64,000 nt of DNA. Origin: a virus. The stretch lies in UHGV virus genome UHGV-0149956. One strand, 5' to 3'. The translations under genes were made by a program, and so were the position numbers. This document shows positions 26,874 through 55,059 of the stretch, piece after piece (the first letter of the stretch is position 1; each line of letters begins with the position of its first letter). Under the pieces are notes generated by a model, which ran no database searches, was not told the origin of the DNA, and was given only the letters and a program-made list of their open reading frames with translations.

Positions 26874-27793
26874 CCAGAATCACTGAAGAGCGTATATCAG
26901 AGATTATTTCCCGTATCGAAATGTATGGTCACGGTGCTGGATATACGGCAGATGAAGTATTGGCACTTGCCCAAATGGCTTTGGCGGCTTGCAAAGATGA
27001 TAAAAAAATGAAGCTTATCGACTTGTTAGTGAAGGAGCTGCCTAAGTGCGGCGGGTGGCCTGATGGAATGAGTTATTGTTACCTACCCAGTGTCAATTTA
27101 ATGGCACCATGCGCGACTTTTGCTTTTGGCTCAGACCACAAAAAAGACACTTTCTTTGGGCGCAATTTTTGTTGTGAGATTGAGCTTCCAATTGGTGACC
27201 TTGATAGCGATGAATACCAGTCAGTTGTCACTCGCGAACAATACGAATCAGCTCTCATAGCGTCGCAGAAAGTCGAGTTCAATGGTGATGAACCTGAAAG
27301 TAAGACTTACAGGTTGGATTTTGGGCAATGGCTGGAACAGCAACGCGGAAAGATCGATGTGGACTGTGGTTGTGTGTCCACTGAAACATTCATGCACTGG
27401 CTGCGGGTAGCTTACGAGGCTGGCAACTATCCGGATATTCCGGATAGTTCGGTGTCAGCGCCAGGAAAGGGCGTCACCGGTGGACGTATCCGCATTAAGC
27501 CGCATGTTTATCGCGAACTGGTTAACCGTCTCCACGATACAGCGATCAAGTGTGCTGGCACCCAGCAATTACGAGAAAGAATTAGCCGTGTTTTGGGCGA
27601 CGTTATTACGCCAGATCATCATAAACAAGCCGAGAAAAGTGGCTTGGAAAGGTGTCACCTTGAGGCGGCATTAAACATTAAGCCGGGGCATACGCTTGGC
27701 ATTATTGATGCACTATTGGTTCATAAGATGGCCAGGGCTTTATTGCCGCTGGTGGCTGAAAAGCATGAGGCGGACCATGCCAACGAAAGCTGA
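26855..27793 (+). CDS. hypothetical protein
   Basis: 312-aa ORF overlapping upstream gene end. Confidence 0.45.
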   Translation: MAQKEMTRITEERISEIISRIEMYGHGAGYTADEVLALAQMALAACKDDKKMKLIDLLVKELPKCGGWPDGMSYCYLPSVNLMAPCATFAFGSDHKKDTFFGRNFCCEIELPIGDLDSDEYQSVVTREQYESALIASQKVEFNGDEPESKTYRLDFGQWLEQQRGKIDVDCGCVSTETFMHWLRVAYEAGNYPDIPDSSVSAPGKGVTGGRIRIKPHVYRELVNRLHDTAIKCAGTQQLRERISRVLGDVITPDHHKQAEKSGLERCHLEAALNIKPGHTLGIIDALLVHKMARALLPLVAEKHEADHANES

Positions 27794-37183: not shown

Positions 37184-37200
37184 TAATTTATTAGAGCAAT
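37184..37200 (-). promoter_or_regulatory. C1 operator
   Basis: Reverse complement ATTGCTCTAATAAATTA, 16/17. Confidence 0.55.
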
Positions 37201-37326: not shown

Positions 37327-37360
37327 ATAACTTCGTATAGCATACATTATACGAAGTTAT
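37327..37360 (+). other. loxP site-specific recombination site
   Basis: ATAACTTCGTATA-GCATACAT-TATACGAAGTTAT, exact 34-bp loxP. Confidence 0.97.
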
Positions 37361-37778: not shown

Positions 37779-38810
37779 ATGTCCAATTTACTGACCGTAC
37801 ACCAAAATTTGCCTGCATTACCGGTCGATGCAACGAGTGATGAGGTTCGCAAGAACCTGATGGACATGTTCAGGGATCGCCAGGCGTTTTCTGAGCATAC
37901 CTGGAAAATGCTTCTGTCCGTTTGCCGGTCGTGGGCGGCATGGTGCAAGTTGAATAACCGGAAGTGGTTTCCCGCAGAACCTGAAGATGTTCGCGATTAT
38001 CTTCTATATCTTCAGGCGCGTGGTCTGGCAGTGAAAACTATCCAGCAACATTTGGGCCAGCTAAATATGCTTCATCGTCGGTCCGGTCTGCCACGACCAA
38101 GTGACAGCAATGCTGTTTCACTGGTCATGCGACGGATCCGAAAAGAAAACGTTGATGCCGGTGAACGTGCAAAACAGGCACTGGCGTTCGAACGCACTGA
38201 TTTCGACCAGGTTCGTTCACTCATGGAAAATAGCGATCGCTGCCAGGATATACGTAATCTGGCATTTCTGGGGATTGCTTATAACACCCTGTTACGTATA
38301 GCCGAAATTTCCAGGATCAGGGTTAAAGATATCTCACGTACTGACGGTGGGAGAATGTTAATCCATATTGGCAGAACGAAAACGCTGGTTAGCACCGCTG
38401 GTGTAGAGAAGGCACTTAGCCTGGGGGTAACTAAACTGGTTGAGCGATGGATTTCTGTCTCTGGTGTAGCTGATGATCCGAATAACTACCTGTTTTGCCG
38501 CGTCAGAAAAAATGGTGTTGCCGCGCCATCATCCACCAGCCAGCTATCAACTCGCGCCCTGGAAGGGATTTTTGAAGCAACTCACCGATTGATTTACGGG
38601 GCAAAAGATGACTCTGGTCAGCGATACCTGGCCTGGTCTGGACATAGTGCCCGTGTCGGTGCCGCGCGAGATATGGCCCGCGCCGGAGTTTCTATACCGG
38701 AGATCATGCAAGCTGGCGGCTGGACCAACGTAAATATTGTCATGAACTACATTCGTAACCTGGATAGTGAAACGGGGGCAATGGTGCGCCTGCTGGAAGA
38801 TGGCGATTAG
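37779..38810 (+). CDS. cre: Cre tyrosine recombinase
   Basis: 343 aa MSNLLTVHQNLPALPVDATSDEVRKNLMDMFRDRQAFSEHTWKMLLSVCRSW..., recalled as Cre; adjacent to loxP. Confidence 0.97.
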   Translation: MSNLLTVHQNLPALPVDATSDEVRKNLMDMFRDRQAFSEHTWKMLLSVCRSWAAWCKLNNRKWFPAEPEDVRDYLLYLQARGLAVKTIQQHLGQLNMLHRRSGLPRPSDSNAVSLVMRRIRKENVDAGERAKQALAFERTDFDQVRSLMENSDRCQDIRNLAFLGIAYNTLLRIAEISRIRVKDISRTDGGRMLIHIGRTKTLVSTAGVEKALSLGVTKLVERWISVSGVADDPNNYLFCRVRKNGVAAPSSTSQLSTRALEGIFEATHRLIYGAKDDSGQRYLAWSGHSARVGAARDMARAGVSIPEIMQAGGWTNVNIVMNYIRNLDSETGAMVRLLEDGD

Positions 38811-38827: not shown

Positions 38828-38844
38828 ATTGCTCTAATTATTTG
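38828..38844 (+). promoter_or_regulatory. C1 operator-like site
   Basis: ATTGCTCTAATTATTTG between cre and the next gene. Confidence 0.45.
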
Positions 38845-39303: not shown

Positions 39304-39333
39304 ATTGCTCTAATTGATTGCTATAATTAAGCC
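39304..39333 (+). promoter_or_regulatory. two overlapping C1 operators with embedded -10 (ref promoter)
   Basis: ATTGCTCTAATTGATTG and ATTGCTATAATTAAGCC; TATAAT at 39323. Confidence 0.55.
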
Positions 39334-39419: not shown

Positions 39420-39980
39420 ATGAAAACAATCGAACAAAAACTTGAACAGCGCCGCGAGTGGCAGAAGGCAGCCAGAGAACGAGCGATCGCTCGGCAACGG
39501 GAAAAGTTGGCTGACCCCGCCTGGCGAGAATCGCAATATCAGAAAATGCGGGATTCTATCGACCGCCGTATCGCTAAACAGAAAGAGCGCCCACCAGCCA
39601 GCAAAACGCGGAAAAGTGCGGTAAAGATAAAATCTCGTGGCTTGAAGGGGCGAACATCGACAGCGGAGGAACGGAGCATCGCCAATGCTCTTGGCGCTCT
39701 CCCCTGCATTGCCTGCTACATGCATGGAGTAATATCTGAAGAGGTATCTCTGCACCATATCTCCGGTCGTACCGCGCCGGGTTGTCACAAAAAGCAATTG
39801 CCCCTTTGTAGATGGCACCACCAGCATGCAGCACCGGCTGAAGTAAGAGAAAAATACCCCTGGCTGGTCCCTGTTCATGCCGATGGTGTGGTTGGAGGCA
39901 AGAAAGAATTCACCTTGCTGAACAAGTCAGAGATGGAGTTGCTGGCTGACGCCTATGAGATGGCAAACATCATGCACTAA
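39420..39980 (+). CDS. ref: Ref recombination enhancement protein (HNH nuclease)
   Basis: 186 aa; basic N-terminus; HNH-like core CIACYMHG...SLHHISGR...CRWHH. Confidence 0.85.
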   Translation: MKTIEQKLEQRREWQKAARERAIARQREKLADPAWRESQYQKMRDSIDRRIAKQKERPPASKTRKSAVKIKSRGLKGRTSTAEERSIANALGALPCIACYMHGVISEEVSLHHISGRTAPGCHKKQLPLCRWHHQHAAPAEVREKYPWLVPVHADGVVGGKKEFTLLNKSEMELLADAYEMANIMH

Positions 39981-40168: not shown

Positions 40169-40810
40169 ATGGATAAGAAAATATGCGTTGTTTCGATGAG
40201 CGTCGGCAAACCGGCGTCAATGACTGCTGCATGGATCAACAACGAGCTGATAATGGCTGAGCGGACCAGCTACCCTGAACGCCGCCGCGACATGGAACTC
40301 CAGCTGCTGCGCGAATTGCGAGAAAAAGAGGAAAAGGGTTTTATCGTGCTGGTGGAAGAGGAAAACAGCTTTATTACTGGTCGAGTTGGCCAGCGTGTAA
40401 GGTTGCGCGATCCCTTCATGAACGGCAGGCCGGTACTGATTGAAGCAATGCAGATTTACAAGGAGCTGGAACGCCAGAAAGCGATCAAGTTACCGCGCAA
40501 GGAATCCGGCAAATACATCCTCCACCAAAGCATCTTCGATTCCGAACACGATAAAAAAGGCGATGAATTTTTCAACATCAACTGGAGCGAAATAACGACA
40601 GAGCATGTTCTGACGTTACTATGTTGCTTTGCGACGGAATACAACAACGTTGCCAGCGCCGACTACATCAGGGCAATGGCTGGAGAAGTTGAAGCCCGCC
40701 AGGAACCATCGTTACTAAGTCCACTTATTAACATAATTCTGGGTACCCAGACACTGGAACAAAAAAAAGTGCCGAAAGGGGTATTAACAGGCAAGCATAA
40801 TTATTTCTAA
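40169..40810 (+). CDS. mat: hypothetical protein downstream of ref
   Basis: Start set at ATG 40169 because a GC stem plus T-run lies inside the longer track ORF (40142); named by synteny. Confidence 0.45.
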   Translation: MDKKICVVSMSVGKPASMTAAWINNELIMAERTSYPERRRDMELQLLRELREKEEKGFIVLVEEENSFITGRVGQRVRLRDPFMNGRPVLIEAMQIYKELERQKAIKLPRKESGKYILHQSIFDSEHDKKGDEFFNINWSEITTEHVLTLLCCFATEYNNVASADYIRAMAGEVEARQEPSLLSPLINIILGTQTLEQKKVPKGVLTGKHNYF

Positions 40811-40977
40811 TAATTTATAGTGGGGACTTTTGATGGTGTAAAACCCCATGAATTATTATTTTTTAGTTTTTTGATTCTATTTTTTTTTGCATTACTCGTC
40901 ATAAAAATGAGCTTGCTTACATAATAGAAAATTATTTTATCAACACTATTACAACAAACGATTATCACTGATAACAT

Positions 40978-41001
40978 GAGTCCTTTGAAAACAAAGGACT
41001 C
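40978..41001 (+). promoter_or_regulatory. hairpin sequestering the ribosome-binding site of the GNAT gene
   Basis: GAGTCCTTTG-AAAAC-AAAGGACTC perfect 10-bp stem whose 3' arm contains AAGGA, ending 8 nt before ATG 41010. Confidence 0.45.
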
Positions 41002-41009
41002 ACCATACT

Positions 41010-41618
41010 ATGTCTAATACCTCGGCAAATGAAATTGTACCGCACTTACCGCTAATTTTCGAAAATGAAGCTAATGGGATTCTTCAGGATCTGGCCTATA
41101 CTCCATCGCTTATGGGGTTGATGATGTTCCCGACAGAAGAGGAGCTGAAAGCAGCGAGAAGCTACATAATTAACGTTTTTGAAGAGTGTTACCGAGCCGG
41201 TCATTTGCGCATTATGGGCTTTACTAATGAAGAAAACTTGTTCGGATACGCCTTAATCTTCGGACATCCATCGGGAAATTTTCCGTTGTACTGTCATAAA
41301 ATATATGTATATGAGCAATATCGTGGTAATGGACTTGGAAGTAATATACTGGCAGAAATACTTGCATTTCCAAATGAGGTCGCTTTGATTTGCCAGTCTG
41401 ATTTGGTTCCTTTTTATGAATCAGCCGGAATGCACTTTAAAGGAAATTACACCACTCCATCAGTCGCCAATTTCAAAAAAACTCGCGGCATGTATGAGGG
41501 GCTTTGTTTGATGAGCACTGAAAAAAATGCAAACTCTAATGGTGTACCTATATTCATGCTGAACGATAACGATATTGATAACATCATACAGGCTATCGCA
41601 TCATCGGCACCACGATAA
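41010..41618 (+). CDS. GNAT-family N-acetyltransferase
   Basis: Motif A YVYEQYRGNGLGSNILAEIL (R-x-x-G-x-G) and motif B NEVALICQSDLVPFYESAGMHF; low-GC gene preceded by a 200-bp AT-rich tract. Confidence 0.6.
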   Translation: MSNTSANEIVPHLPLIFENEANGILQDLAYTPSLMGLMMFPTEEELKAARSYIINVFEECYRAGHLRIMGFTNEENLFGYALIFGHPSGNFPLYCHKIYVYEQYRGNGLGSNILAEILAFPNEVALICQSDLVPFYESAGMHFKGNYTTPSVANFKKTRGMYEGLCLMSTEKNANSNGVPIFMLNDNDIDNIIQAIASSAPR

Positions 41619-41700
41619 TATTAATAATTCATCTCGCCGCAGGAACTACAAACCAGTTGATTGTTTGTGAAACGCCCGGTGCAAACCGGGCCAACAAAAC

Positions 41701-41949
41701 TCAATCAGCATTGAGAAGCAATGCATTATCTATGATGATCTGCTCCCATTCTTCGAATGCCCGGTCGCGGACGCCCTGGGGAACACTGTTTGTTTTGAAA
41801 TCGACGACTGTACGCCATTTCCCGTCCGGACGGTACATGCGCAGAGCTTTACTTCCCCCTTCCCTGCGCACCTCAACGTTATGCTTGTCAGCAAACTCTT
41901 GTAATGCTCGTAGCGTCCCATGCTTTACTGTGTAGTATCGCTTTTTCAA
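41701..41949 (-). CDS. lxc: small protein at the end of the ulx-darB transcription unit
   Basis: 82 aa, overlaps the upstream stop; named by synteny and size. Confidence 0.45.
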   Translation of the reverse strand: MKKRYYTVKHGTLRALQEFADKHNVEVRREGGSKALRMYRPDGKWRTVVDFKTNSVPQGVRDRAFEEWEQIIIDNALLLNAD

Positions 41950-42386
41950 GTTTTCTCTCCAGCCTGTGCCAAGGCTTCAACTTCCAAATCGTAAGACTCA
42001 AACTCATAGTCCTGGTCGTCAACTTCTTCAGGCACTGGCAGTAAATGCCAGGCTGAGTATATCTGACCATTATCAAAACGCTCCTGGCTGTAGAGCGTCG
42101 CGGCTATGAGTGTTAGCGCCGGGCGGTCATAACGGTAAATTTTGCGAACGTCACGGTCAACGAGACGACCGAAATTACCATAACCGCGCTCCAGTAATAA
42201 TTTTTTAATTTCCGGCCAGTATGGACCATAGCTGCGGTACAGGCGGGGATTTTTCAGTAATCGCCCGCGTAGCCCTGACAGGAAGAAATCAACGTATTCG
42301 TCTTCTGTCTTTCCTAACAACGCTGTACGGAGTACCGCCTCAAGATATGTTTTATTCGGTTTTATTGTATCAGATAGTGTGGCCAT
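41946..42386 (-). CDS. ulx: small protein downstream of darB
   Basis: 146-aa ORF immediately 3' of darB on the same strand; named by synteny. Confidence 0.45.
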   Translation of the reverse strand: MATLSDTIKPNKTYLEAVLRTALLGKTEDEYVDFFLSGLRGRLLKNPRLYRSYGPYWPEIKKLLLERGYGNFGRLVDRDVRKIYRYDRPALTLIAATLYSQERFDNGQIYSAWHLLPVPEEVDDQDYEFESYDLEVEALAQAGEKT

Positions 42387-42419: not shown

Positions 42420-45400
42420 TTATGCGTATTGTTGGATGACGGCCAGAACGTCCGCCACGTTGTGTTTTGTCTCGATAATCCACCAGTTACCTGGGAAGTC
42501 GCTGTTCTTCGCCTTCGCTGGCAACCAGCGAGCGCCGAATTTCGCCTTGATTGCGTCTTTCGCACGGAAAAGAACCCCTTTCATGCCGGAGGCTTCCTGA
42601 AGCCCAAATACCTCGCCAGCGGCGAATTTTGGTGCGTACATCATCTTCAGGTCGGCGGTGGATACGCGATAATTCAGACCAAGAGACTGAGCTATGCTGG
42701 TGGCATCACCCTGTATTGATGATAACTCTTCTTGTTTCTCGTTTCTGGCAGCAATTTCTTCCTCCGTGATGTTGCCAAGGGCCAGGTTTATCCGATCAGC
42801 GTCTGCCTGTTTCTCTTCATCGGTGCGCCCGGCAAGTACCGTGTTAATTCTGTGCAATATCTCCACATGATTCTTGCGCATGCTGAGCAATTCCGGCGTA
42901 ACCTCGTTAAGGTCCACCAGCCCAAGGATGGCAAGGTCGGTAAACATTGATACCAGGTTGTAGGTCATGCGATAGCTGAGTTGCCCATAGGCTGATGGCA
43001 ACTGCACCGCATCCATTTTATAGGCATCCATAAATTTAGAGCCGTCGTTTACGACATCCGCAATTGCCGGTGTGATTTTTCCTGTGGTGGCGGCCTCCCT
43101 GATTGCTGTTACCCACGATTGAGTCAGCGCGGCGACTGCATGATTCAGATTGACTTTCCGTTCTGCTGCAATGCGCGCGCTTGCTGCGTCCATTGCCTGC
43201 TTGATCTCGTCTTTATTGCTGTAAATGCCAATGGTGCCAAACTGTGCTGTGGTGATCTCATAATCTGACGCCCGGAACTCATTGGTACCGAAAATGGCAT
43301 TGGTGACTTCAAGTTCAGAATCCCCGTTACGAGTAGCCCCCTGGCTTGTTTTCTCCGGCATTCTGGCGATCGCATCCGCTATTTTCTCCTGAATTGCTTC
43401 AGGGGATAGCATATCTCCGTATGACGCGATTACATCGCCATAATTGGAGCCAAACAGTTCAACCAGGAATGCTTCTGCCGAACGGATCTGGCGGTTATTC
43501 CCTTCCGACATCATACCAAGCACCCATTTTGCAATTGACGACTTCAGCGCGCCGTCACGGCGATCCGGGTAAACCGCATGCTTCAGTGGGTCCGTATAGG
43601 TACCAACAAAATCAATGCTATAGCCTGACTCTGTAGTCTGAACGCCGTATGAGTCAGTGATTTTGATCATGCCGCGCTGCTGGAAACGGTAGAAATCGTC
43701 ACAGGAAACGATGTCGTTAATCCCGGCGATGGAGACGCCACCACTGATTTTCTGCATAACAGCATCTTCATCGGGAGTTACATCAACCTGTTTATCCAGC
43801 GTCTTCACATCCCAGTTACCAGATTTGGTGCCTTTGAAGGTGAAGATGATCTCCACGTCTGCGCGCTGGCTGTCGAAGTCCAGCGACTTAATGCGAACGA
43901 TATCACCGGCACAATCGTAGTATTGGCCTACACGCCATGAGCGATCGCCGATAACAAGGAACTCACTCGCATGGTTAACCAGGTCAGGATCAACATCCAG
44001 AATGCCTTTATTTAATGCATCCTCCACCAGCGGGCGCAGGCGTTTGATATCCGTCGCGGCCTTCTGAGTACGGTTCAATAATTTCTCATAGCGGGAGATG
44101 GCTTGAGAGATATTAGCCTTGCGCTGAATGGCGCTTTTCAACGACGCGCGATACTGTGCTAACAACATACGGTCTGTGTGATGGACACTCCCCCAGCGTG
44201 CCTTCCAGTCTGCGTTATCCGCTGCCTTGGCCATTGCCGCCTGTTTGAATTTAGCTACCTCGGCGGTGGTCTTTTCAAGTTCCGCTTTGCTTCGCTCTAA
44301 TTCAGCGGTAAGCACCTCCACATCCTCACCAGCTGCGTGCTGCGCCTTGATGTAGTTCTGAAGGTCGATAGTAGCCTGTTCTTTCTGGCGAGCGCGTTGC
44401 GCGGCTTTCGCCTTATCCATTTGAACCTGCATCATTGCCAGACGTTCGCCATCATCCTTAGCGGTATACATCTGCATTTCGATCATATCGTTGGCGTCGG
44501 CGTTCTCCATTTCTGACTTATCTGAACGGAGGATATCGGAGATCCAGCCTGCTTTACGCTTCAGCGTCTTCAGTCGGTATTCATCGAAAGAACCCTTGCC
44601 GCAGTAGTAGTGAACGCGAACGCTTGCACGGTTGGAGCCAACTCGGGCACCGCGACCGTTTCGTTGCGCAATACTGGCTGGAGTCCATGGCAACGTCAGA
44701 TGATGGATGTCAGTCGTTCCTCGATGCAGGTTGATACCCACCTCTGCCTTTTTGTTGCAGATGATGATCGGAGTCCGGCCCTCCTGGAAGTCGGCTGCAA
44801 TCTTTTCCAGACCGCCCAACGACATTTCATTTTGCTGCGCGATATAGGCGTCATACAGAGCCATTTGCTCGTTGTATTTCGCTATCTGTGCATCTGTTGG
44901 TTCATCCGGTAACTCTTTCGGCGGTTTAACCGCTTTCAGTTTCTTACCGGTTTTACCTGCCTCGGCAACCGTCTGAGCATTCAGTATCCCCACCTTTGAA
45001 GGTTCAAGGTTAAGAGCATTGCAGATAATGCGCTTGAGCTTCTGGTGCTGCGTTTTTTCATCGGTGAAGATGATTTGCTTACCTTCCGGGAAAAACTCCT
45101 TCAGCGTGGCAATCAGCTTCGCGTATTTGGGCGTAACGGGGTGAGTTACGGTCTGTTCGTCAATGCCAAACCTGGCCAGGCGCTTATTCACTTCCTGCTC
45201 GAACGCTTCCGGAACCTGCAACTGAATAAACTCGCCCTTATCTATCAGGGAGTATTGCGATTGCTGCGTGATTGAATCATCACTGTCGTCGTCTTCGCTG
45301 GTGGCTTGTTTAGGCAAACTGTCCGCCAGCTGCTGCACCGCATCGGCGTACTCCGGCAGGAAACGATAGGTGATCCGGCGATAGTACAGGTCCATGTCAG

Positions 45401-48400
45401 TACATACGCGGTCCATATCCCTGATTATTGAGAAGATCGGACGGGCTTTCTCGTGCTCAATCACGCCGTCTTCATTGACCGAGGTCGTTACGCCATTGTT
45501 GGCTTTGGCCGCCGCTTCCGCCTGCTGACGCAATTCTTCATACGCCGCCAGTTGTTCTTCAGTAAGTGGTGCATCCTGCTGGTGTTCGTCCAGCTCCGGG
45601 ATCTCCACGGTATCCTTAACGTCTTCCGCCGTTTTAAGCGTTACCCAGCGATGGAATATACCGCGCAGCGCATCAAGGTTTTCAAAGCCCACCAGCGCCA
45701 TTTTTTCTTCAACTTCACCGCTGATTTTCTGTACCGTTTCCAGCCTGGTCTTGCCGAAGAATTTAACGAAGTCATCAGGACCGTAGATCCCCATCTTCTG
45801 CCAGTATTCCTTCGGCAGAACATGAGAAAGCATGTTGTATGCATCGATCGGGGTGTTAACGACTGGCGTTGCAGTCAGGAGAACCGGCCCGCGCCCACCA
45901 TTCTTTTTCATCAGGTACGCGTTTTTAATTGCCATATCTCGCGCCGATTGCGCCACCGCGCTGGTGGGCAGATAGGCCAGTTGTGACGCTTCGCGACCAT
46001 TTTTATAGCTATTGCGGTAGTTGTGACCTTCGTCAGCGATCACACTATCGAAGCCCATATCCTCAAAGTACGGATACTTCTCTGCTTTTTCGGTGCCGGT
46101 ATCTGAATACTCCGACAATACCCGGCGACGCGCGGCCTCTTTGCGGTGGGAGTCGGAGTCCATTGCGCTGGCTACGCGCCCGGCGGCAACGAAGTCATAA
46201 AGCATGTCTTGTGCATGCTCATCTACGGTGTCATCACGTAGCGGAATGCGGGCGTATTGTTCTTTGGTAAACACGACTGCACGGTAGTTTGAGTGCGGGA
46301 TCGCGTTCATCCGCGCCGTGATAGTGGCTTCATCTGCCAGCTTAAGAGCATCGCGCATAACTGGAGTGCCATCAGTACCAAGAACAGGTTTACCGTTCTC
46401 ATTGAGCACCGGCACCTGGCGAATCTGATCGCCATCCATCAGCACATCAAGACCGACGAACAAGTAGTTACTGAATGCCTCTTCACTCAGGAATTCTTTT
46501 GCTTCGTAATACCAATTTTCCAGCACTGATTTAGGCACTACATACGCAGTACGGGTAGAGCGACCGTTCTCATAGTTGAACGCCTCAAGCGCCAGCGCGG
46601 TCGTGGTTTTACCCAGCCCGGTGCCGAAGCCCAGGATGCCGCGCCCATCTTCGGACAGTCGGCGCACCTCGCTATTCTGGTAATCAAATGGCTGGCGCTT
46701 ACCGCTTAATCCCTTCAACCCAAGCGGATCGCCAGAGTGTTCATACGGGATATTGCTATTGAACACATCGTTGTATTTGGCAACCAGCTCATCGTAGCGA
46801 TCGTGCGTCTTGATCCACTTATTGAACTGGTCCTCAAGCAGTGCCATCTGCTCGCGGTAGCCGTTCGCCGTCGCGCTATCTTTGCCACCGATACGCGCAC
46901 CATTGAGATACTTTTCCAGCTGTGCCGGGAACCCGGTCGCGTTTTCACCCGATTTACGGTCCCACTCGTAGCGGATCTCGCCTGTTTCTTTATCCTTGCG
47001 CTGGACGACACCGTATCGGTGCCCGACGAACAGACCATCACCACCGTGATAGGTGTCAGAAACCATTTCGTCGCCTTCCAACTGCACTGACTGCACATAG
47101 CGCAGATCCGGATAGCCGTTTTCCTGCAAAAATTCCAGAATGACGGAACGGTCGAACCAACGGCTATTGAGCTTAAACCGGATATTCTCTGCTGGCGTCT
47201 TGATGCGCTTCTCTTCGATAGCTGCCAGCTGATTAAGGACGTTGTTCTTTACTGGACCGTCGGGGAGTGTGGCGAGGAATTCCTGTTTTGGAGCCACTAT
47301 CTCGTTAATGTCGCCGCTGGTGGCGCGGGCGAACGGAACAATCCCGCCATACGGTGAAACCGCAATACCAGGGGTGCTGGCCAATAAATTAAGCAACTCT
47401 TCATCACTGGCTGGCAGTTCGCCGGTAAACGCAAGGCGGAAATCATCGAGCTGGATTGGATCGCGGGTGAGATCGCTATAGAGATAACGCAGGGTGTCCT
47501 GATAGCTGGTGGAGTCATAACTTGCGCTGGAATCATGCGTAACCAGCTTCCCTGTCAGCTCGTCAGAAATAGTGCCATCCAGCTTAATTGCACCACGGAA
47601 AGCAAACCAGGCGCGCGCACCGCTCCCCGACAATTTCGCTATCGGACCGCGACCGGGGTTACCAAAACGGTCAATCTCTGCCTGCAAACGGGATACCAGA
47701 GAAAGGCGCTGCTGTTCGATTTGTTCAGCACTATGCCCGGCGGCCTTCATGTCCTGATATTCAATTAACATCCGGCCAATCATCGCCCCGCGATACAAGC
47801 GTTCACGGTATTTTTCAGGCTGGCTGTTAATCCAGTCCACTAGCTGCACCATATCGTCGCTGATTGATGTGGTGTACTTATCGCGGACATTTGCCATCTG
47901 GGTAAATGTCATACCGAGACGGCCTTCTGTTGTAGTCAGGTTACGCTGAAGAGCCTCCCAGCTGTCCGCGCCATAACTGGCAACATCAATCTTCAGCTCC
48001 TTCCCTGCATCAGATTCAATCCAGCGACCACCAGCATATTTTTGCCATACGCCATTAATCAGGCGCATTTCCCCTTCATCAACAACATCTGCGGTCGGTG
48101 ACGGTTCAGCCATATCGAGCAAAGACCAGTCGATACGACTTTCGAAACGATGAATCAGCTTCGCTTTAAGAGCCTGGTTATCAATCTGCCCGTCGGCACG
48201 AACCTCAATACGCCCCTGGAAGCCCTTTTCCTGGGTACCATGAACAAACCGGCGGCCGTCCTTTTCAAACCACTTGCCAGAAATAAACGTTGGCCAAAGC
48301 ACATTTGCCGATTCAAGAGTGCTTTCATCCACCAGGGGGATTTTCTCAGCCATCTCTGCCGGATGTTTGCGCATCAGCACCACATCAACGACTGTACTGG

Positions 48401-49187
48401 TCCCGTTTGCGTCAAAAGTACCGGTAGGCAAGCGGTGAGCGCCAAGAAATTCAGCTTTACGGGATAGGCGCAGGCGTAACCGCTTCATGTTTGAACCTGA
48501 AACAATGGACGGCGGCACAATCACGCACATGAATCCGCCTGGCTTTATCTTGTCCAGCATGCGGAGCATGAAGTAAGAACCCATGTCCGTTTCTTCTGCG
48601 TAAGGCTTATCGATGTTGCGTGTGTTATCACGACCACCGAACGGAACGTTACCCACAACATGGTCGAATGAATCGTTAGGCGTGCTTACAGCCAGCTGTT
48701 CGAACGGGGAAATCTGTACGCTGTCTTCCGGGTGTAACAGCTGGTTTATACGACCGGAAACACTGCTGATCTCAGTCGCAGTCATCACCGTACCAACCGG
48801 TTTTGTCTCATTAAAAACGCCGGTGCCCGCCGATGGTTCCAGAGTGTTACCTACGTCCGCGCCGTAGAGCTTCATGATCTCCCAGACACCTTCAGCGATC
48901 GGCTTTGGTGTGTAATATTCGGAGACGGACCCGCCAATGCCGCCTTCACCGGTGTACCCAGCCAGGATCTGGCGCTGTTCATCTGTCAGTGTCGCGCCGT
49001 CCACCAGCGAATTAAGCAAATCTATCGCCTTCTGATTCGCCTCCCGGCGCAGTCGGTCATAGCTTTTGCCTTCCACCTTTTCCACGCCGTATTTAATCGG
49101 CGCTCGGTGAGATGTTATTGCCCTAATGTATTTCAATATTTCGCTGACACTTGAACAGCGAAACACCCCCATAGATAGCTTGTTCAT
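42420..49187 (-). CDS. darB: DarB antirestriction protein (methyltransferase-helicase fusion)
   Basis: 2255 aa; N-terminal N6-MTase-like NVPFGGRD; helicase Walker A GFGTGLGKTT and DEGHNYRN box; helicase C-terminal motif IAQRNGRGAR. Confidence 0.85.
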   Translation of the reverse strand: MNKLSMGVFRCSSVSEILKYIRAITSHRAPIKYGVEKVEGKSYDRLRREANQKAIDLLNSLVDGATLTDEQRQILAGYTGEGGIGGSVSEYYTPKPIAEGVWEIMKLYGADVGNTLEPSAGTGVFNETKPVGTVMTATEISSVSGRINQLLHPEDSVQISPFEQLAVSTPNDSFDHVVGNVPFGGRDNTRNIDKPYAEETDMGSYFMLRMLDKIKPGGFMCVIVPPSIVSGSNMKRLRLRLSRKAEFLGAHRLPTGTFDANGTSTVVDVVLMRKHPAEMAEKIPLVDESTLESANVLWPTFISGKWFEKDGRRFVHGTQEKGFQGRIEVRADGQIDNQALKAKLIHRFESRIDWSLLDMAEPSPTADVVDEGEMRLINGVWQKYAGGRWIESDAGKELKIDVASYGADSWEALQRNLTTTEGRLGMTFTQMANVRDKYTTSISDDMVQLVDWINSQPEKYRERLYRGAMIGRMLIEYQDMKAAGHSAEQIEQQRLSLVSRLQAEIDRFGNPGRGPIAKLSGSGARAWFAFRGAIKLDGTISDELTGKLVTHDSSASYDSTSYQDTLRYLYSDLTRDPIQLDDFRLAFTGELPASDEELLNLLASTPGIAVSPYGGIVPFARATSGDINEIVAPKQEFLATLPDGPVKNNVLNQLAAIEEKRIKTPAENIRFKLNSRWFDRSVILEFLQENGYPDLRYVQSVQLEGDEMVSDTYHGGDGLFVGHRYGVVQRKDKETGEIRYEWDRKSGENATGFPAQLEKYLNGARIGGKDSATANGYREQMALLEDQFNKWIKTHDRYDELVAKYNDVFNSNIPYEHSGDPLGLKGLSGKRQPFDYQNSEVRRLSEDGRGILGFGTGLGKTTTALALEAFNYENGRSTRTAYVVPKSVLENWYYEAKEFLSEEAFSNYLFVGLDVLMDGDQIRQVPVLNENGKPVLGTDGTPVMRDALKLADEATITARMNAIPHSNYRAVVFTKEQYARIPLRDDTVDEHAQDMLYDFVAAGRVASAMDSDSHRKEAARRRVLSEYSDTGTEKAEKYPYFEDMGFDSVIADEGHNYRNSYKNGREASQLAYLPTSAVAQSARDMAIKNAYLMKKNGGRGPVLLTATPVVNTPIDAYNMLSHVLPKEYWQKMGIYGPDDFVKFFGKTRLETVQKISGEVEEKMALVGFENLDALRGIFHRWVTLKTAEDVKDTVEIPELDEHQQDAPLTEEQLAAYEELRQQAEAAAKANNGVTTSVNEDGVIEHEKARPIFSIIRDMDRVCTDMDLYYRRITYRFLPEYADAVQQLADSLPKQATSEDDDSDDSITQQSQYSLIDKGEFIQLQVPEAFEQEVNKRLARFGIDEQTVTHPVTPKYAKLIATLKEFFPEGKQIIFTDEKTQHQKLKRIICNALNLEPSKVGILNAQTVAEAGKTGKKLKAVKPPKELPDEPTDAQIAKYNEQMALYDAYIAQQNEMSLGGLEKIAADFQEGRTPIIICNKKAEVGINLHRGTTDIHHLTLPWTPASIAQRNGRGARVGSNRASVRVHYYCGKGSFDEYRLKTLKRKAGWISDILRSDKSEMENADANDMIEMQMYTAKDDGERLAMMQVQMDKAKAAQRARQKEQATIDLQNYIKAQHAAGEDVEVLTAELERSKAELEKTTAEVAKFKQAAMAKAADNADWKARWGSVHHTDRMLLAQYRASLKSAIQRKANISQAISRYEKLLNRTQKAATDIKRLRPLVEDALNKGILDVDPDLVNHASEFLVIGDRSWRVGQYYDCAGDIVRIKSLDFDSQRADVEIIFTFKGTKSGNWDVKTLDKQVDVTPDEDAVMQKISGGVSIAGINDIVSCDDFYRFQQRGMIKITDSYGVQTTESGYSIDFVGTYTDPLKHAVYPDRRDGALKSSIAKWVLGMMSEGNNRQIRSAEAFLVELFGSNYGDVIASYGDMLSPEAIQEKIADAIARMPEKTSQGATRNGDSELEVTNAIFGTNEFRASDYEITTAQFGTIGIYSNKDEIKQAMDAASARIAAERKVNLNHAVAALTQSWVTAIREAATTGKITPAIADVVNDGSKFMDAYKMDAVQLPSAYGQLSYRMTYNLVSMFTDLAILGLVDLNEVTPELLSMRKNHVEILHRINTVLAGRTDEEKQADADRINLALGNITEEEIAARNEKQEELSSIQGDATSIAQSLGLNYRVSTADLKMMYAPKFAAGEVFGLQEASGMKGVLFRAKDAIKAKFGARWLPAKAKNSDFPGNWWIIETKHNVADVLAVIQQYA

Positions 49188-55030: not shown

Positions 55031-55059
55031 AAAAAATCCCGCCGACTGGCGGGATTTCT

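Follow-up and report, generated by a model that had tools for sequence, protein, structure and literature searches.

The mat-lxc slot and its cargo

The window analyzed here is a stretch of 64,000 nt from the virus genome UHGV-0149956, a P1-like phage-plasmid, and the gene of interest within it (41010-41618, + strand) codes for a 202-aa GNAT N-acetyltransferase, WP_000072647.1. This gene is the sole substantial open reading frame (ORF) between two convergent genes that form the conserved flanks of the locus. On the left is mat (maturation control; 40169-40810, + strand), which lies at the same position as mat of P1 and whose limits are those of the RefSeq coding sequence in the 100% identical plasmid pMUB-MIN10-2; on the right is lxc (bof; 41701-41949, - strand), identified by gene order using the P1 record AF234172. 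The order in that record is mat, res, mod, lxc, ulx and darB, and the res-mod pair lies at exactly this site, as the first-pass annotation of the window had stated. Within the window there is no res or mod gene between the end of mat at 40810 and that of lxc at 41701, also in agreement with that annotation. The interval is 100% identical in pMUB-MIN10-2, a plasmid of E. coli O126:H45, in which the ORF bears the annotation "GNAT family N-acetyltransferase".

The gene lies on a low-GC, one-gene cargo cassette (38% GC) that extends approximately from 40821 to 41696 on the + strand. When the interval was compared by BLAST with P1-like plasmids and phages that do not have the gene, the aligned query positions were just 1-120 and 998/1004-1051, and a comparison with empty sites gave the same limits. 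Downstream of mat, homology with other P1-like elements stops about 10 nt past the stop codon. The ORF has a GC content of 40.4%, compared with 48% for mat, for lxc-ulx and for the whole window, and it is preceded by an AT-rich tract of 199 nt (40811-41009, + strand; 27.6% GC), close to the 200 bp first estimated, that presumably holds the promoter and leader. At the other end of the cassette, beside the lxc stop codon, a GC-rich hairpin of the form GCCCGGT-GCAA-ACCGGGC can be read from the sequence (41674-41691, unstranded), and is likely to be a terminator between the convergent genes.

To see what related elements carry at this position, 80 P1-like loci were collected from IMG/VR with Mat as the query, and 74 of these have both the mat and the lxc flanks. 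The slot is empty in 10/74 loci, where only 35-45 bp separate the genes and a GCCCGG...CCGGGC hairpin takes up the space between the two stop codons, and the GNAT gene is present in another 10/74 (878-921 bp). A SIR2_2 protein of 434/435 aa (PADLOC PDC-S25 / ThsA-like; 1408-1421 bp) is found in 14 loci, a RelA/SpoT protein of 378/379 aa in 11 (1272-1277 bp), a 346-aa DUF2971 protein (PDC-S31; 1202 bp) in nine, type III res/mod genes with two mod alleles (~5.09 kb) in eight, and a 316-aa PIN_12 protein (PDC-S34; 1050-1060 bp) in five. Three loci contain a KilAC antirepressor together with a helix-turn-helix protein and JukA (~3.57 kb), three carry a pair of YaaC-like (PF14175) and nucleoside 2-deoxyribosyltransferase-like genes (1704 bp; L060:7109-8658), and one has a 135-aa protein with no family match (593 bp; L093:10768-11175). 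The last two cargoes have no defence annotation and, like the GNAT, are candidates for conflict genes. The RelA/SpoT cargo matches PDB entry 7ztb over its full length (E = 1.6e-250), a structure of CapRel^SJ46 (PANGU preprint), which is a fused toxin-antitoxin of temperate phage SJ46 with experimentally validated anti-phage activity (PMC9712102).

The slot is, then, a swap site for mutually exclusive cargoes, most of which are validated or candidate anti-phage systems. The substantial cargoes have a GC content of 35-43% (35-38% in all except the 3.57-kb class), and a comparable GC-rich hairpin stands beside lxc in every cargo class. At the other boundary, a comparison of positions 40780-40810 of the window with the corresponding mat 3' ends of loci L016-L095 revealed that the last ~10 codons of mat vary by cargo class, the window being one base different from one CapRel class (L018). 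These differences suggest that cargo is exchanged by recombination in the flanks, with breakpoints inside the 3' end of mat. The first-pass annotation had proposed a cargo swap at an accessory hotspot, and both the discrete classes of the 74-locus survey and the literature bear this out: the res-mod region has been described as the low-GC "highly variable region 1" of P1-like phage-plasmids (PMC9603915). The slot was already known in outline as a hotspot for cargo exchange, and what the survey adds is its behaviour as a defence hotspot.

Further from the slot, gene order identifies cre (37779-38810, + strand) and ref (39420-39980, + strand) upstream of mat, with a cra-like ORF, also on the + strand, between them, and ulx (41946-42386, - strand) and darB (42420-49187, - strand) beyond lxc. 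A canonical loxP site with 13-bp inverted repeats and an 8-bp spacer (37327-37360) is situated ~420 bp upstream of cre, and is the longest perfect hairpin-type repeat of the window. Plasmid pMUB-MIN10-2 (L118) carries, within its P1 backbone, two genes for InsQ/TnpB-family RNA-guided endonucleases (16708-17883 and 45274-46482), and it also has a phd/doc module.

The GNAT protein and its relatives

The 202-aa sequence is identical to residues 31-232 of PDB entry 9s30, a crystal structure whose chain 9s30_A is named just "GNAT family N-acetyltransferase". The entry is absent from a copy of the PDB running to 8 April 2026 and was, therefore, probably released later; a literature search found no paper on either WP_000072647.1 or the 9s30 protein, and the papers on iLund4u, a UK phage-plasmid survey, PANGU and Goldfinder proved to have no bearing on it. 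It was considered whether 9s30 might be the structure reported in the Mu Mom paper, and this was rejected, as that structure is 8BV8. The initial identification of the ORF as a GNAT is confirmed by Pfam, with matches above the cut-off to Acetyltransf_10 (27.3 bits, cut-off 23.6) and Acetyltransf_1 (25.6 bits, cut-off 20.7), and one just below it to Acetyltransf_7 (25.3 bits, cut-off 27). In PHROGs the protein belongs to phrog_10454 (an exact family match), which is labelled as function unknown. No family of PADLOC-DB v2 matched at E <= 1, and among the NCBIfam equivalogs (AAC, ArsN1, RimI, ElaA and others) the best scores were 13.4 bits (cut-off 171), 12.4 bits (cut-off 170) and 12.5 bits (cut-off 86.4). 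Known families of resistance acetyltransferases are thus not matched, and neither is any well-characterized acetyltransferase conserved across P1-like phages.

An AlphaFold model built from the family alignment (pLDDT 88) has the GNAT alpha/beta fold, and its only additions to the GNAT core are N-terminal helices and one C-terminal helix. Fold searches returned generic GNAT neighbours and nothing more. After 9s30 itself, the best profile matches in the PDB are to serotonin N-acetyltransferase (AANAT; E = 5.5e-5 over ~76 residues) and to diamine acetyltransferases. The acetyl-CoA binding motif A (Q/R-x-x-G-x-G/A) is present as R105-G-N-G108-L-G110, and R105, G108 and G110 are retained in 91%, 98% and 88%, respectively, of 43 family members. 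Across the same set, motif A, F135, Y136, G140 and the L-N-D186-x-D188 motif are conserved in 81-98%. In a pairwise alignment with AANAT, H96 (within a Y-C-H-K motif) is aligned with H122, and Y136 with Y168, both of which are catalytic residues of AANAT. The protein is acidic, with a pI of 4.95 and a net charge of -9, and the family median pI is 5.3. Ratios of nonsynonymous to synonymous substitution (dN/dS) between alleles of 0.13-0.35 indicate purifying selection, and no diversifying selection was detected by dN/dS in any of four segments. Judged from its sequence, the GNAT appears to be an active enzyme maintained by selection, and a nucleic acid would be a less likely substrate for it than a cationic amine or basic protein.

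The full interval was found in 19/286 P1-like plasmids of PLSDB, in 12/293 matching E. coli genomes, and in 0 of 50,697 phage records. The protein family is small, with 23 clusters in 5.8 billion proteins and, in a set of 1.84 billion proteins, 57 representatives at E <= 1e-10, the full-length ones being single-domain proteins of ~190-215 aa. Homologues occur on a Serratia phage-plasmid with C1 and Lpa; on Klebsiella IncFII plasmids, beside repA and near McrBC; in a Raoultella lambdoid prophage, as a moron on the opposite strand; in a P. aeruginosa island with HipBA; in a Serratia integrative element, next to a C5-methylase/DUF4928 restriction-modification pair; and at a Serratia chromosomal site after a gene for a MuF-C/LPD38 polyvalent protein. 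A further homologue, 45% identical, is present in Pseudomonas sp. ERMR1:02 (L098:5956-9332), 60 nt upstream of the gene for a 907-aa SIR2_2 protein. The GNAT thus represents a small family restricted to mobile elements, comprising phage-plasmids, conjugative plasmids, prophages and integrative elements.

The DNA shared between these contexts begins at -45 to -120 upstream of the gene and ends no more than ~40 nt past the stop codon, and no neighbouring gene is conserved in the eight kinds of context. The sharing of the gene alone, without a conserved neighbour, points to an autonomous one-gene cassette and argues against a two-gene toxin-antitoxin module. Two candidate partners were considered and rejected. 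An operon of GNAT and SIR2 was discounted, as the SIR2 neighbour is found at one Pseudomonas locus and not beside the other Pseudomonas copies, and the 95-aa ORF that precedes the gene in the Serratia element does not accompany the cassette elsewhere. In the window, the sole small ORF of the upstream tract encodes 56 aa on the - strand, and the AT-rich DNA around it is not conserved.

Upstream tract and hairpin at the ribosome-binding site

The tract ahead of the gene contains two weak sigma-70-like matches on the + strand (40830-40859 and 40896-40925), and has no homology with the corresponding DNA of an 85% identical allele. DNA homology between contexts starts at about CTGATAACATGAG (40968-40980, + strand; -45), a near-palindromic, conserved motif at which the leader common to enterobacterial family members begins. 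In the form CTG(A/C)TAA(C/T)AT(C/G)AG it precedes the gene in the copies of E. coli, E. albertii, Serratia, Klebsiella and Raoultella, and stands ~30-45 nt 5' of the start codon in all enterobacterial members (L002-L004, L007, L013 and L097). It may represent a -10 region or an operator. The sequence ATTGCTCTAATAAATTT, which we take to be the consensus of the P1 C1 operator, has 15 matches in the window (between 212 and 52983) with three or fewer mismatches, versus 0.27 expected. Examples are 3734-3750, 37184-37200, 38828-38844 and 39304-39320; some of these sites precede the cra-like ORF and ref, and none precedes the GNAT gene, the window scan finding no match in its upstream tract. The absence of a C1 operator at this position suggests that expression of the gene is independent of the prophage repressor.

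Directly upstream of the start codon is a perfect hairpin in which TGAGTCCTTTG (40977-40987) is fully complementary to CAAAGGACTCA (40992-41002) around an AAAA loop. It had been described as a 10-bp hairpin at 40978-41001; the hairpin is real and perfect, but folding and a script count show that the stem is 11 bp long and spans 40977-41002 (+ strand). The element AAGGA (40994-40998, + strand), the sole word resembling a Shine-Dalgarno (SD) sequence between -40 and -1, lies wholly in the 3' arm, as first noted, and is separated from the ATG by an unusually long spacer of 11 nt. The hairpin alone has a predicted folding energy of -15.5 kcal/mol at 37 C, and a 91-nt region around it folds with a z score of -4.4.

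Perfect stems with loops of 3-8 nt were counted by script, with the expectation obtained from dinucleotide-shuffled windows. Stems of at least 10 bp occur at eight loci of the window versus 0.3 expected (0.07 for stems of at least 11 bp), and the rarity of such hairpins in the shuffled windows indicates that this one is more than a product of chance. The others of at least 10 bp include loxP and terminator-like stems. Six further perfect hairpins of this size are found at 1617-1640, 9028-9054, 17527-17554, 19084-19112, 27425-27449 and 55034-55057, and some resemble bidirectional terminators, for example AGAAAAGCCCG...CGGGCTTTTCT at 9028. For the GNAT gene, the unpaired probability averages 0.26 from -16 to -5; across 58 annotated genes of pMUB-MIN10-2 the median value is 0.50. 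Its initiation region is the 7th most structured of this set when judged by folding energy, and the 6th by accessibility of the SD. The initiation region is structured, but not extreme.

The hairpin is present in all 100% identical copies and is extended to 12 bp in a 97% identical allele (L020) by a substitution just 3' of the stem. Alleles that are 85% identical (L002, L003 and the five IMG/VR loci L070 and L074-L077) do not have the extra stem-forming bases, and their SD is a canonical AAGGAG at a distance of 7 nt from the ATG. In these (e.g., L002:3940-4005), an upstream CTCCTTC pairs with the GAAGGAG of the SD around a CTGATAACATCAG mini-hairpin (-16 kcal/mol in a 75-nt fold), so that the SD would be masked by an architecture different from that of the window. 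The copies of Serratia, Klebsiella and Raoultella have a weak 6-bp stem that includes the SD. Pairing of the SD in some form therefore appears to recur, while the strong, perfect hairpin looks lineage-specific and is without covariation support; as it is confined to one allele group (the 100% and 97% identical copies), it gains no independent support from evolution.

Structured translational control, as proposed in the first-pass annotation, holds insofar as the SD is sequestered in the predicted fold; nothing points to a regulated switch. There was no match to Rfam at E <= 1 on either strand of 40600-41800, and no partner gene like com was found for the hairpin. An RNA thermometer was rejected because the stem still has a folding energy of -9 kcal/mol at 60 C, and an intrinsic terminator at 40977-41002 was likewise rejected, there being no U-tract and nothing at this position in a terminator scan.

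The hairpin might instead have no role in translation, and serve as a DNA palindrome for a regulator or as a signal for RNA processing or stability, its overlap with the SD being incidental. Other perfect palindromes of the window are DNA sites or terminators (such as loxP and pairs of C1 operators), and this one adjoins the near-palindromic CTGATAACATGAG. Nonetheless, the sole SD is precisely what the 3' arm covers, alleles of 85% identity also pair theirs by way of CTCCTTC, a weak SD stem is seen in the three other genera, and there is neither a U-tract for termination nor an Rfam match. A purely non-translational role is, in our estimation, improbable.

Proposed role and comparison with known systems

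Existing records already include the gene, phrog_10454 as its family, the variable region and a crystal structure, but assign the protein no function. Three possible functions had been listed in the first-pass annotation, namely a toxin-like acetyltransferase, an anti-defence factor and a small-molecule resistance gene, and anti-phage defence, the reading most favoured by the content of the slot, was not among them. Since the equivalent slot of related elements is home to genes for anti-phage immunity, the GNAT is a reasonable, if unproven, candidate for a one-gene defence factor.

The scheme that we favour is as follows. The AT-rich leader and the GNAT gene would form a self-contained cassette in the variable res-mod slot, and the lysogen would express the gene without control by the C1 repressor, the SD-sequestering hairpin holding translation low. 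The enzyme would play its part in conflicts among mobile elements, the likeliest role being that of a single-protein factor for anti-phage defence or superinfection exclusion. The amine that it N-acetylates would belong to a cationic target, either a small molecule or a basic protein, and not to a nucleic acid. That the GNAT is an anti-phage or conflict factor, expressed by the lysogen and kept at low translation, is put forward tentatively, as the reading we prefer while accepting that it could well prove wrong. It draws on the content of the slot and also on the neighbours of homologues elsewhere, which include restriction-modification, SIR2 and McrBC genes.

Several points weigh against such a role. 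The assignment to defence rests on guilt by association, with no matching PADLOC model, and a protein of 22 kDa would seem to have little room for a phage sensor beside the modelled GNAT core. The slot is not purely defensive, as the antirepressor, the YaaC pair and the 135-aa protein are also found there. The function of the gene does not require the strong hairpin, which other alleles lack, and any mRNA that began within the 5' arm would be unable to form it. A more specific proposal, that the GNAT is a new type of single-protein immune effector, dependent on acetyl-CoA, that stops superinfecting phages through acetylation of a phage or host amine, with its dose set by the SD-sequestering leader and with a mechanism unlike those of the catalogued systems, is possible but doubtful.

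Among the alternatives, the one that survives best is a fitness gene of lysogenic conversion, which would benefit the host by detoxifying or inactivating a cationic small molecule from the environment, such as a polyamine, a biogenic arylalkylamine, an aminoglycoside- or streptothricin-like antibiotic, or an aminoacyl-nucleotide toxin. The closest relatives in sequence and fold are enzymes that act on small amines (AANAT, SSAT1/2, NATA1, SpeG, PaiA and those of the tabtoxin and streptothricin type), and an acidic protein would suit cationic substrates. E. coli already encodes SpeG, however, and no NCBIfam equivalog for resistance or housekeeping comes near its cut-off (13.4 versus 171 bits). 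Like resistance genes, the GNAT gene is alone and partnerless and is found also on IncFII plasmids, and in P1-like elements the variable regions do acquire resistance genes (PMC9603915); on the other hand, the family is very rare, shows no association with transposons or integrons in the contexts seen, and shares its slot mostly with defence systems. Overall, we regard a detoxifying enzyme as rather unlikely.

An anti-defence factor would inactivate a host immune protein or signal, as AcrVA5 does by acetylating Cas12a, and so aid establishment of the element in new hosts and complement the neighbouring Dar anti-restriction genes. The GNAT gene is on the strand opposite to the dar operon, however, in a slot that is filled by defence rather than anti-defence genes, and a buried SD with an 11-nt spacer is a poor fit to a protein needed quickly and in abundance upon entry. 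The IncFII copies lie beside repA and not in the leading region, where plasmid anti-defence genes are reported to cluster (PMC11541004). With no specific similarity to AcrVA5 either, this role has a low probability.

Least probable, and by some distance an outside chance, is a toxin-like GNAT of the AtaT/TacT/KacT type, perhaps fused or orphan, that acetylates aminoacyl-tRNA in abortive infection or addiction and has its dose limited by the hairpin: the tight occlusion of the SD recalls toxic genes such as mom of Mu, and among the cargoes of the slot is CapRel^SJ46, whose fused toxin-antitoxin acts on tRNA. None of the eight contexts has an adjacent antitoxin, however, the pI of 4.95 makes this an acidic protein, and it is no nearer to the tRNA-acetylating toxins than to GNATs of other kinds, so that the first-pass suggestion of a toxin-like enzyme is now disfavoured.

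If the preferred reading of a one-protein acetyltransferase defence is right, the mechanism would be new, and acetylation by a minimal GNAT would join the known immune chemistries. The mat-lxc slot of P1 could then be mined in the same way as the hotspots of P2 and P4, and two more unannotated cargoes are present there. P1-like phage-plasmids are common in clinical and animal isolates of E. coli and Salmonella, and cargo that shapes susceptibility to phages would bear on phage therapy and on P1-based tools. Should the GNAT be a detoxifying enzyme instead, it would represent an unrecognized resistance or fitness determinant moving among phage-plasmids, IncF plasmids and prophages.

Of the known systems, AcrVA5 is no closer to the GNAT than dozens of unrelated GNATs are, and the gene described here occupies a defence slot and not an anti-CRISPR locus. 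The toxins AtaT, TacT, KacT and ItaT are likewise small GNATs of mobile elements whose expression must be limited, but the present protein differs from them in having no adjacent antitoxin, no special proximity in sequence or fold, and an acidic surface charge. The match to enzymes of the AANAT and SSAT type spans ~76 residues (motifs A and B) with marginal significance, whereas the N-terminal helices and the C-terminal helix with its conserved L-N-D-x-D are specific to the GNAT family here.

The likeness to Mom of phage Mu is one of analogy only. Both are phage-borne enzymes of GNAT fold with an initiation region sequestered in a stem-loop, and in the Mu record the annotation of Com is that it activates translation of Mom; Mom has a GNAT fold and uses Gly-tRNA (PMC13219725). 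Homology was rejected, as alignment of the family profile to Mom with hhalign gave a probability of 0.3% (E = 0.2), and, unlike Mom, the GNAT has an intact acetyl-CoA motif, no com-like partner, and an acidic rather than nucleic-acid-binding character. The nearest parallels in genome context are the EcoP1I res-mod genes of P1 variable region 1 and CapRel^SJ46, which share with the GNAT cassette the mat-lxc slot, the low GC content and the GC-rich hairpin proximal to lxc. The difference lies in the cargo itself, which is here a 22-kDa GNAT with no similarity to restriction-modification enzymes, toxSAS proteins or PADLOC models.

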